Assembly (NCBI GenBank): GCA_036630325.1
Contig: CP142727.1
Coordinates: 992,001 to 1,056,000 of the forward strand
Direction of reading: 5' to 3'
Origin: Vairimorpha necatrix
Taxonomy: Eukaryota
Length of the DNA: 64,000 nt
The notes under the pieces are model-generated. The model did no database searches and was not told the DNA's origin. It was given only the letters and a program-made list of their open reading frames with translations. Made by a program: the position numbers and the translations under genes. Below, in pieces: positions 58,026-61,091 of the stretch (its first letter is position 1; the number at the start of each line of letters is the position of its first letter).

Positions 58026-61000
58026 TGTAGGGTTTAGAACCCTTAATAAATAAATGGTTAACATGGCGAACACAAGGATGAACAGGGAAACAAGAGAGTC
58101 CCGTAGTCAAGAGGCTAGAACATTAGAGAAAGAGGCAATTAGGATAGATAAGAGACTAAAGTTAATATTGAAAGTTGAGTGGAAAGATGTTATGGATTTG
58201 GCATCTGCGAACTTGCAGGATTATATTTTTGAAAATTTTTGTGACGGAAGGAGCAGTTGGGAGGAAATTTATAAAGGCTTACAAAAAGGAGCAGAATTTG
58301 AGAGAGAGTCAGAAGAAAGACAAGAAATGATTAAAGAGATTATGGATAAAGTGTTGAAAGAGTTTAGGGAAGAAAGAAAAGAAAATCTTAGGATGTATAG
58401 GAAAAGAAGAGAAATCAGAGAAACTACAAAATGTTTTATATGTAAGAAAGAAGGGCATTACGCTAGAGAATGTCATGAAAGTGTAGCTGGTAGGGAAAAA
58501 TATAAAATTAAAAAGGAACAAGTTTTACAGAAAGAACCAATTATCAACAATGAAGGGAAAAGATGTAAAACAGTAAATAAGTTAGAAAATTTAATTGAAA
58601 AGTATCCGGAAGTTTTTAAAGAATCAGAAGAAAAGATAAAATATCTCACAGGAGAGAAGTGTCCAATAAATACTAAGCAAGGTGAAAAGGTTGTGAAAAG
58701 AGGGCAGAATGTGCCATACTACCTTAGGGTGAAATTTGAGGAGTACTTGAATAAGTTGGAAAATTAAGGGGTTATAAGACGTTCCAAAAGTGAGTGGAGG
58801 AGTCCAATAAGAGCACTTGAAAAACCAAATGGGGACGTAAGATTGGTAAGCAATTTGATGGCGTTAAACGATTTGGTTGACAAGGACCCGTACTCACTAC
58901 CGTTAATTAAGGATATTATGAGAGCCACACAGGGGTCAAAAGTATTTACGGTTATCGACTTAAAAGAAGGGTTTTATCATATTGAGATTGAGGAGCACCA
59001 TAAGCACAAAACAGCATTTGAAGTGAATGGTCGAGTATACGAATGGAATAGTATGGTTATGGGGTTTAAGAATTCGCCTCATATAATGCAGAGAGTAATG
59101 AACAGAGTTTTAGATGAATTCAGAGGTAAAGGCGTGGAAGTATATATGGATGATATAGTTATTCATGGTAAAGACGTAAGAGTGCATGACGAGTTACTAG
59201 AGAGGGTAATTAAAAAGTTTAAAGAGTGTGGGTTGAGAATAAACCAAACAAAGATACAATACAAAAAAGATGAGGTGATGTTGCTGGGAGTAACAATTAA
59301 TGGGGAGGTCATGGGACCGAATGAGATTAAAAAGCAGGAGACATTGGAATATAGAAAACCTGAGAATGTTAGAGAGTTAAGAAGATTTTTAGGACTAACT
59401 GGTTGGTTTAGAGACTTTATTCCCAACTATGCGTATAGAACAGTAAGGCTTACTGAGGCTTTAAAGAAAGATGTTAAGTGGAATTGGACGGAGGATATGG
59501 AAAGAGCTTTTGAGGATATGAAGCAAGGCTTGAGAGATATGAAAAAGTTGAAGATTCCGGACGGAAAAAAGCTATTTAGAGTAAGAACTGATGCGTGTGA
59601 TACGGGGATCGGAGCAATTCTATTACAAGAAAATAAAGAGGGTGAGTGGATTCCGATACAATGGGCATCGAAAATGTTGACTCCTACCGAGCGAAGATAT
59701 ACGATAAGTGAGAAGGAGATGTTGGCGGTGTTTTTTGGAATAAAGAAGTTTGAAAGTGATTTGAGAGGAAGGAAATTTCATTTGATGACGGATCATAAAG
59801 CATTAGCAGAGATCAGAAATAAGCCATACTTCAATAATAACAGAATAAACAGATGGGTAGAACAGATACAAGAGTTTGACTTTACAATAGAGTATGTGAA
59901 AGGGGAGTTGATGACAGATGCAGATGCGTTAAGTAGGCAGTATGATCAGGTAGAAGTTTCGGATGAACAAAAAGAAAAGGACAACAAGAGAAAAGAAGTG
60001 ATCGAAAAACAAATTTTGGGAAAAAAGCAGAAACATATTAAAGAAAAGGACGGTAAACAGTATTGGGAATTTTCCACAGGTGAAATGAAATAGATATTGA
60101 GCCTAGATAGTAGAGAACATGAAATAACAAGAGTACATGAGGAGTTAAACCATAGAGGTGTCAAAGGCACTAATTATAACATTAAACAAAGATGGTATTG
60201 GCCTGGTATGAAAAATCATATTAATAAGGTAATTAAGAATTGTGAAATATGTGGGATTAACAATAGGAAAAACACAGGAGGATGTGATTTCGTAGTAACT
60301 AGAAAGAAATTGGAGAAAGTGGCGTTGGATTTAATGGACATAGGTGGAGAGAATAGGTATGTGTTACTGGGTATTGATTACTTTACTAGAAGGTTGTGGG
60401 GTTCGAATTTGAGATGTAAAGAGAGTAGTGAAGTTATAGAGGTATTACAAAAGTGGATAAGGGAAGATGGATTTCCAGAGGAATATGTGACAGACAACGG
60501 AAAAGAGTTTGTAAGTAATAGATTTAAAGAATGGTGTAGTATTAATGATATTAAACATAGGAAAGTGGGCTTAGAAGCTCATGGGAGTAATGGTAGAATC
60601 GAGAGATGCATCAGAACTATAAGAGAGACATTGATAAAGCAAAATGATGGGAATATTTCTGAAAAGATAGAAAGAGCAATCAAAGGATATAATAATACAC
60701 TATATACAGCAATAAAATGTACGCCGATGGAAGCGTGGAGAGATCAAACGGCTGAAGTTATAATTGAAAATGATGAAAATGGAAAATATGCTGGTCGGTT
60801 CAAGAGAAGACACAGAGAGACATTTACAGTAGGCCAAGAGGTAAGAATCGCTAGGAGAGAAAATTTAGGTACACGTGCGAAAACAGACAAGGGAAGATTC
60901 GCGGGTCGCGGAAGGATCGTAGCTATAAGTGAAAATGATTCATATATTGTGAGACTACTGGATGGTAAAATTGTTAAAAAGAGGCATTATGATTTGAAAG

Positions 61001-61091
61001 AGATAAGGAAGAGTTGTTTAGAAGATGGAGAGACTACCCGTCTGGAGGGGGGATGTAGGGTTTAGAACCCTTAATAAATAAATGGTTAACA
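58026..61091 (+). mobile_element. Minimal Ty3/Gypsy retrotransposon, 3066 bp, identical 38-bp LTRs, no protease
   Basis: LTR TGTAGGGTTTAGAACCCTTAATAAATAAATGGTTAACA at 58026-58063 and 61054-61091; TSD GTAAA; PBS TGGCGAACAC; PPT GGAGGGGGGA 61044-61053. Confidence 0.95.
58054..61065 (+). pseudogene. Single-frame Gag(CCHC)-RT-RNase H-integrase polyprotein with two nonsense codons
   Basis: ORFs 58054, 58843 and 60097 share one frame; stops TAA 58765 and TAG 60091; CFICKKEGHYAREC, VYMDD, RTDACD, HEELNH..CEIC, VTDNGKEF, NGRIERC. Confidence 0.92.

Follow-up and report, generated by a model that had tools for sequence, protein, structure and literature searches.

The question raised by this locus is how little sequence a long terminal repeat (LTR) retrotransposon can carry and still belong to a family that encodes its own enzymes. 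The window analyzed here, i.e., a stretch of 64,000 nucleotides (nt) from the microsporidian Vairimorpha necatrix (assembly GCA_036630325.1, contig CP142727.1, positions 992,001 to 1,056,000 of the forward strand), contains a Ty3/Gypsy-type element of 3,066 bp at positions 58026-61091, and the two LTRs of this element are only 38 nt long. Are such repeats the native termini of the element, or the remains of something longer? With a probability of roughly 0.8, the element represents an inactivated member of a Ty3/Gypsy family that is native to Microsporidia, self-coding, and present in multiple copies, and that has been reduced in size to about 3.07 kb.

Structure and coding content of the element

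The two direct repeats (TGTAGGGTTTAGAACCCTTAATAAATAAATGGTTAACA) flanking the element are identical over 38 nt; each begins with TGTAGGG and ends with GGTTAACA, giving the termini TGT...ACA. A repeat search extends the match to 39 nt, as an A happens to precede both copies. When up to three mismatches were allowed, the LTR sequence was found at exactly two places in the window, and two matches occurred in none of 100 dinucleotide shuffles. The same 5-nt target-site duplication (TSD), GTAAA, stands on both sides, with a chance of such a match of about 0.002 at the local base composition. The 5' LTR is followed without a gap by TGGCGAACAC (from 58064), which represents a candidate primer-binding site (PBS), and the polypurine tract (PPT), GGAGGGGGGA, adjoins the 3' LTR equally closely. 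A first-pass annotation, prepared by a model from the letters of this DNA, had described TG...CA repeats of 38 bp, a 5-bp TSD, a TGG-type PBS, and a PPT. All of these features were found in place, the boundaries are firm, and the structure of the element is confirmed as real.

Folding of these terminal regions gave nothing distinctive. The energies of the LTR, of the LTR with the PBS, and of the PPT with the LTR did not differ from those of shuffled sequences (z from -0.53 to +1.11), and a GGGUU/AACCC hairpin considered for the LTR was rejected, as its energy was not significant relative to shuffles. A search of the whole window against Rfam gave no matches at the gathering threshold.

A single reading frame spanning the whole element had also been proposed. 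The frame itself is present: it begins with ATG 58054 inside the 5' LTR, or with the in-frame ATG 58063, and ends with TAG 61063-61065 inside the 3' LTR. There are 3 stops in its 1,004 codons, including the terminal one, and 97 and 126 in the other two forward frames. What did not stand is its continuity in the window copy, which is interrupted by a TAA at 58765-58767 and a TAG at 60091-60093, with no frameshift.

Other copies were sampled through Logan contigs of four public sequencing runs (X1 to X4), aligned to positions 57000-62100. Stop-free copies were sought among them, and sense codons were found at both interrupted positions. Substitutions at 58765 and 58766 give an Arg codon in the contigs of X1, X2, and X4, and a difference at 60091 gives Glu in those of all four runs. 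Aligned relatives have Arg or Lys at the former codon and Glu at the latter. The occurrence of sense codons at both places in other runs indicates that an uninterrupted open reading frame (ORF) exists, as the form assembled in these runs, and that the window copy is a slightly diverged pseudogene. In other words, this copy is dead, and the family is intact elsewhere. Two different accounts of the stops were considered and rejected. An alternative code, with TAA and TAG as sense codons, is at odds with the terminal stop (TAG followed by TAA TAA) and with the sense codons in copies and relatives; programmed read-through was dismissed on account of those same sense codons.

The contigs also describe the variation within the family and the ends of its members. 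Compared with the window copy over 58046-61082, the two X1 contigs show 11 substitutions and a single in-frame indel of 9 nt. This indel, an insertion behind position 58169, is present in contigs of X1, X2, and X4; it falls in the Gag-like helical region and repeats the adjacent sequence, and thus represents a small tandem duplication or a deletion polymorphism. The contigs end within the LTRs, at 58046 and 61082, as a repeat would give. The listed X2 flank contigs are identical to the flanks in the window, which means that X2 contains the same or a very close genome. Moreover, contigs of X2 and X3 continue to the left of 58023 into two different and unrelated flanks. These are other insertion sites, in which the boundary lies within 3 nt of the LTR start, and they support the 38-bp repeats as native termini.

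Along the encoded polyprotein, Pfam families match in the order zf-CCHC (residues 126-140, just above the curated cut-off), RVT_1, RT_RNaseH, Integrase_H2C2, and rve. The YMDD motif, the HHCC finger, and the acidic residues of the integrase are all in place, and the copia-type RVT_2 reaches only 17.4 bits, which is under its cut-off. The homology of the reverse transcriptase (RT), RNase H, and integrase agrees, together with the domain order, with the Gypsy identity assigned at first sight. No retropepsin Pfam family was matched in the window copy. The sole D[ST]G motif of the polyprotein sits in RNase H, with none upstream of the RT, and only about 45-60 residues separate the zinc knuckle from the conserved RT lead-in (…KC.I.T..G..VVKKGQ…). 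By these criteria, the element has no protease, a feature that the first-pass annotation had passed over. It is a member of the Ty3/Gypsy lineage by homology, yet a protease-less offshoot that fails the textbook definition.

The part preceding the RT was modeled with AlphaFold (residues 1-234, pLDDT 77.7). The model consists of a helical N-terminal domain, a helix of 56 residues, and the knuckle. Entries of the HIV-1 nucleocapsid align locally to the knuckle alone, over 16-25 columns, and these alignments are not significant.

LTR length and protease content among relatives

The 38-bp LTRs had been regarded in the first-pass annotation as the natural termini of a very small element. Other copies with much longer LTRs were sought, and none was found. 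In a metagenome scan of the best 80 of 451 relatives, only one contig, L001, proved to be close (54% protein identity), with the others at or below 37%. L001 carries TG...CA repeats of 39 nt, which differ by one mismatch and lie 3,124 nt apart. Its TSD is TTATA; TGGCACCCAG (TGG) adjoins the 5' repeat on the inside, and the 3' repeat is preceded by a G-rich run. Another relative is located in the window itself. This decayed element (40335-43446) has repeats of 49 nt, identical at 47 of 49 positions and separated by 3,064 nt, with ATGGGGCG adjoining the 5' repeat on its inner side and a G-rich run at the position of the PPT. Its flanking 5-mers, CATAA and CTATA, differ, and no clean TSD is left. 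It belongs to the same protease-less clade, where its RT piece is 75% identical to that of its nearest relative (P0012). Short-LTR relatives, with LTRs of 39 nt and about 48 nt, are therefore known at 50-54% protein identity to the element.

The relatives known as proteins point in the same direction. Among the 39 closest, 21 are encoded on contigs of 3,024-3,283 nt, and 17 full-length ORFs (996-1,031 amino acids) occupy 97-99% of contigs of 3,035-3,159 nt, which limits the LTRs to a few tens of bases. In 21 of 27 aligned relatives, Met-Ala or Met-Gly stands in the column of the junction ATG, which fits a junction of the form ...NACA/TGG(C/G). A short Met-initiated extension upstream, which would fall in the LTR, is present in 15 of these 21. 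The junction ATG is thus likely to be the conserved start of the polyprotein. At the other end, C-terminal tails such as ETTRLEGGML and ETPS..GGDVV (the ETTRLE/ETPS type) are found in 12 of the 27 relatives. When read back from the proteins rather than from DNA, these tails would translate GAGAC-N(3-5)-GTCT, the G-run, and the TGT of the LTR. Both tiny LTRs and an ORF running from LTR to LTR are native features of a clade of microsporidian elements.

In the three 3' ends that could be aligned (the main element, 40335-43446, and L001), GAGACT and CCGTCT are invariant. The motif GAGAC-N(3-5)-GTCT lies at 61030-61043, 43378-43392, and L001 3643-3654, in elements that share only about 50% protein identity. 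Its GAGAC and GTCT halves do not vary, the length of the spacer does, and its shortness precludes scoring it as a hairpin. It may represent a cis signal for plus-strand priming.

The named relatives come from Nosema granulosis, Vairimorpha necatrix, Enteropsectra breve, Nematocida, and Pancytospora, and some of them are annotated as 'Transposon Tf2-9 polyprotein'. One relative is labelled as a Clostridium metagenome-assembled genome, which is taken to be a mis-binned contig; all other named relatives are microsporidian. The LTR pattern had no matches in prokaryote genome contigs, and no relatives were found in viral contigs.

The distribution of the protease was assessed on a FastTree phylogeny of 120 listed homologues and the RT-RNase H piece of the window copy (121 rows, 1,008 columns, midpoint root). 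The element falls in a starred, well-supported group (99) of 49 rows, composed of 48 relatives and the window copy. A retropepsin Pfam family is present in none of these 49 rows, in 2 of the 7 rows of the starred sister group, and in 24 among the remaining 64. In 30 members of the clade, searched at E<=1, retropepsin was absent from the 25 most-matched of 58 Pfam families, and a hidden one would concern at most one member. A single loss of the protease would fit this tree, provided that the root lies outside the clade.

A third element, also decayed (25092-28455, about 3.36 kb), is a member of the sister group, with its nearest relative (P0053) at 60%. It has repeats of about 64 nt (TGTGG...TAACA) approximately 3,300 nt apart and a protease-type FDTG motif in the ORF 25247-25873. 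The combination of such LTRs with FDTG in the sister group means that miniature LTRs are not confined to the protease-less clade.

The features of the main element are collected in Table 1. The rest of the window is poor in long genes, with only 12 ORFs of at least 150 amino acids in 64 kb. Further remains of mobile elements, located at 14261-14743, 22058-23437, 4922-5623 (-), 8351-9404 (-), and 19073-20052 (-), comprise the ORF of a Merlin/IS1595-type DDE transposase, two integrase ORFs, and two more Gypsy RT fragments. A dispersed repeat of about 110 nt occurs at 57848-57968 and 24147-24255, with an identity of 83-91% and no Rfam or tRNA match; one of its copies lies about 70 nt upstream of the main element. 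The contig depth in the bin covering this repeat (57855-58025) is 76 in X1 and 41,935 in X2, with loose ends at both borders. Finally, the ORF 44130-45365 encodes an M16 (insulinase-like) peptidase, for which the best named homologue is the 'secreted insulinase-like peptidase' of Vairimorpha ceranae (46% identity). Only three relatives besides the window protein were recovered in a near-length search.

Table 1. Features of the short-LTR element and its target site, in window coordinates.
Feature	Position	Strand	Remarks
Left TSD, GTAAA	58021-58025	.	Same 5 nt at 61092-61096
5' LTR, 38 nt	58026-58063	+	Identical to 61054-61091
GGG in LTR		+	LTR positions 5-7
Stop TAG in LTR		+	LTR positions 10-12; first in the order TAG, CCC, AATAAA pair, ATG, junction ATG
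CCC in LTR	58040-58042	+	LTR positions 15-17
Two overlapping AATAAA in LTR	58045-58054	+	LTR positions 20-29
ATG in LTR	58054-58056	+	LTR positions 29-31
Junction start codon	58063-58065	+	Positions 38-40 counted from LTR start; terminal A of LTR and TG of PBS TGG
Candidate PBS, TGGCGAACACAAGG	58064-58077	+	TGG abuts LTR; within coding frame
Gag-like part	58063-58764	+	Helical N-terminus, CCHC knuckle, N-terminal lead-in of RT
CCHC zinc knuckle	58432-58473	+	zf-CCHC E 3.4e-4
In-frame stop TAA	58765-58767	+	Reading frame of window copy
Reverse transcriptase, YMDD	58819-59298	+	RVT_1 E 1.2e-31; YMDD at residue 364
RNase H	59485-59877	+	RT_RNaseH E 8.9e-31; RT_RNaseH_2 E 3.9e-28
In-frame stop TAG	60091-60093	+	Reading frame of window copy
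Integrase	60112-60561	+	H2C2 finger 60112-60267 (Integrase_H2C2 E 1.3e-13); DDE core 60334-60561 (rve E 1.1e-10)
Motif GAGAC-N5-GTCT	61030-61043	+	Directly 5' of PPT
PPT, GGAGGGGGGA	61044-61053	+	Abuts 3' LTR; within coding frame
3' LTR, 38 nt	61054-61091	+	Stop TAG 61063-61065, CCC 61068-61070, AATAAA 61073-61082
Right TSD, GTAAA	61092-61096	.	Copy of left TSD

A predicted mode of action and the competing explanations

How could 38 bp be sufficient for an LTR? Gene boundaries in another microsporidian, Encephalitozoon cuniculi, offer a model. In this species, 5' untranslated regions (UTRs) are shorter than 7 nt; a motif that resembles CCC or, rarely, GGG directly precedes the start codon, and AAUAAA occurs close to the stop codon (PMC2803860). 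The 38-nt LTR is laid out like such a minimal intergenic spacer, which is the most economical account of its shortness, and the LTRs of L001 and of the element at 40335 likewise contain AATAAA or ATTAAA, then CCC, then the junction ATG. By analogy, the very short promoters and UTRs of Microsporidia would explain how 38 bp can suffice.

On this model, the LTR would combine the end of the ORF with its stop codon, a CCC promoter motif, AATAAA polyadenylation signals, and the start of the ORF. Transcription would begin a few bases past the CCC in the 5' LTR, and the 3' end of the RNA would form about 10-30 nt downstream of AATAAA, where the 3' LTR finishes or slightly outside it. The predicted R region would then measure at most about 20 nt, or possibly less than 10 should transcription begin no more than 7 nt from the junction ATG, and U5 would be near zero. 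An R of only a few nt, as predicted in the first-pass annotation, is thus a reasonable expectation. Translation would proceed from the junction ATG, formed by the A of the LTR and the TG of the PBS, or from the ATG 9 nt upstream. The CCA end of a tRNA would pair with TGGCGAACAC and prime a strong-stop DNA of the minus strand, no longer than about 20 nt, which would be transferred to the 3' R, and the G-run of GGAGGGGGGA would prime the plus strand. Both the PBS and the PPT would be translated as parts of the ORF. The integrase would insert the product with a 5-bp duplication in AT-rich sites (GTAAA here and TTATA in L001). The polyprotein of about 1,000 residues would most likely act uncut or be cut by a cellular protease, and its zinc knuckle may serve as a nucleic-acid chaperone.

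Several observations weigh against a self-coding family that works in this way. The start of transcription and the polyadenylation site are predictions from sequence motifs, and because AATAAA follows CCC in the element, the signal may sit at both ends of the RNA, where the 5' one would have to be ignored. The primer is likewise problematic: no tRNA gene was found in the window or in 80 further loci, the PBS past about 14 nt is unlike the complement of a tRNA T-arm, and it is variable, with TGGCGAACAC in the main element, TGGCACCCAG in L001, and TGGGGCGATA at 40384. The Gag-like model gave no significant structure match that would identify a capsid fold (best Foldseek E 2.4). The best VIA Z score, 6.5, belonged to generic helical proteins, and the C-terminal domain of Arc, at Z 5.1-5.2, stayed within noise. 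As to the number of copies, the depth of X1 contigs is about 60-65 over the element and 0.4-4.4 in the flanks, which is not equivalent to copy number. Additionally, contigs prove presence only, and stops may occur in further copies. The tree was built by a quick method, contains some truncated proteins, and has the protease scored by precomputed Pfam labels.

The loss of the protease, and perhaps of a true capsid, is the basis of the strongest rival explanation, which is considered unlikely. According to it, the family is not self-sufficient and obtains protease and Gag in trans from the sister lineage, which carries a protease and lives in the same genomes. A possible donor type is at hand, as the sister-group element with FDTG and LTRs of about 64 nt lies in the same window, and retropepsin families occur in the sister group; the lack of a recognizable capsid fold would also be understandable. 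However, the donor-type copy in the window is itself decayed. The protease-less clade is large, and its 49 rows extend over several microsporidian genera and include long intact ORFs, which suggests that selection has been maintained on the polyprotein as a whole. No conserved pattern of cleavage sites was seen either, although no search for one was made.

A more improbable explanation is that the LTR has no working promoter. The transcripts would then arise by read-through from neighboring genes, as is common in Microsporidia, and the repeats would serve only as integrase ends and as homology for strand transfer. E. cuniculi is documented to produce overrunning transcripts and polycistronic RNAs (PMC2803860), 38 bp leaves little space for a U3, and an ORF on the same strand (57060-57800) ends 226 nt upstream of the element. 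This explanation is opposed by the recurrence of CCC, AATAAA or ATTAAA, and ATG in three elements, the LTRs of which have little other sequence in common. Moreover, a read-through RNA without a defined 5' R could not regenerate the LTRs.

The explanation that the 38-bp repeats are a deletion remnant of longer LTRs, or an assembly artefact at the termini, has no finding in its favor and is close to refuted, given that independent assemblies of four runs share the ends and that the boundary is the same in two of these runs where it meets other flanks, that relatives at 50-54% protein identity have LTRs of 39 nt and about 48 nt (with the TSD TTATA in L001), and that 17 relatives fill nearly the whole of their contigs of about 3.1 kb.

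Comparison with known elements and significance

The family described here, native to Microsporidia and represented in the window by an inactivated copy, can be compared with several known groups. The yeast elements Ty3 of Saccharomyces cerevisiae and Tf1/Tf2 of Schizosaccharomyces pombe have the same order of RT, RNase H, and integrase, TG...CA LTRs, a 5-bp TSD, and a CCHC knuckle. Tf1 likewise has a single ORF. These elements are about 5 kb long, with LTRs of about 340-360 bp, an aspartic protease, a capsid, and untranslated leaders. In contrast, the element in the window has 3.07 kb and LTRs of 38 bp, lacks a protease, and carries its PBS and PPT inside the ORF.

Structure-based LTR finders use a default minimum LTR length of 100 bp, and we know of no coding element with LTRs below 70 bp from earlier work. 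Nbr elements of Nosema bombycis were reportedly described by Xu et al. in 2006. The closest precedents for short LTRs are FRetro129/SMART, a non-coding element of 292 bp with 85-bp LTRs (Gao et al. 2012, PMC3281118), and FRetro64, a coding copia element of 5,234 bp with LTRs of 76 and 90 bp (PMC3281118). Both resemble the present element in their TGT...ACA ends, a 5-bp TSD, and unusually short LTRs; here, however, the LTRs are half as long and belong to an element that encodes its own RT and integrase. As far as these published descriptions extend, the LTRs of FRetro64 are the shortest documented in print for a coding element. An assignment of the main element to the TRIM/SMART miniature elements was rejected, as its internal region encodes RT, RNase H, and integrase.

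Parisot et al. 2014 (PMC4202319) described Ty3/gypsy groups that are specific to Microsporidia and in which a single polyprotein replaces gag and pol, and rebuilt 50 consensus elements 'with LTRs at both extremities'; these groups are also cited in PMC13174016. Single-polyprotein Gypsy elements of Microsporidia are thus already published. The similarities include the microsporidian host, RT and integrase of the Ty3/gypsy type, and a fused gag-pol in one ORF. Moreover, the named relatives of the present element come from genera which that work covers or which neighbor those it covers (Nosema/Vairimorpha and Nematocida). The available sections of its main text give no LTR lengths, no mention of a protease, and no LTR-to-LTR ORF (PMC4202319), and the supplementary consensus sequences may hold short LTRs already. 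A literature search that covered papers other than the supplements of PMC4202319 revealed none linking Microsporidia with short LTRs or with protease loss.

The family is among the most compact self-coding LTR elements on record. A more far-reaching claim is that the whole clade replicates although its LTRs measure only 38-49 bp and its R at most about 20 nt (possibly less than 10), with almost no U5, no untranslated RNA, and no protease. It is put forward tentatively, with the odds somewhat against it. If it is true, these would be the smallest self-sufficient LTR retroelements known, and neither processing of a polyprotein nor a conventional U3-R-U5 LTR of at least 100 bp would be needed for LTR-type retrotransposition. 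The lower bound on cis requirements would be moved far down, as 38 bp would accommodate the integrase ends, a promoter motif, a polyadenylation signal, a stop codon, and a start codon, and the minimal length of R would become directly testable. A clade-wide loss of the protease, accompanied by intact ORFs, would also raise the question of how a single uncut chain provides the functions of Gag, RT, and integrase. In practical terms, LTR finders run with the usual 100-bp minimum would miss such elements. Counts and ages of LTR elements in Microsporidia may therefore be biased, and dating by LTR divergence would be nearly useless at 38 bp.

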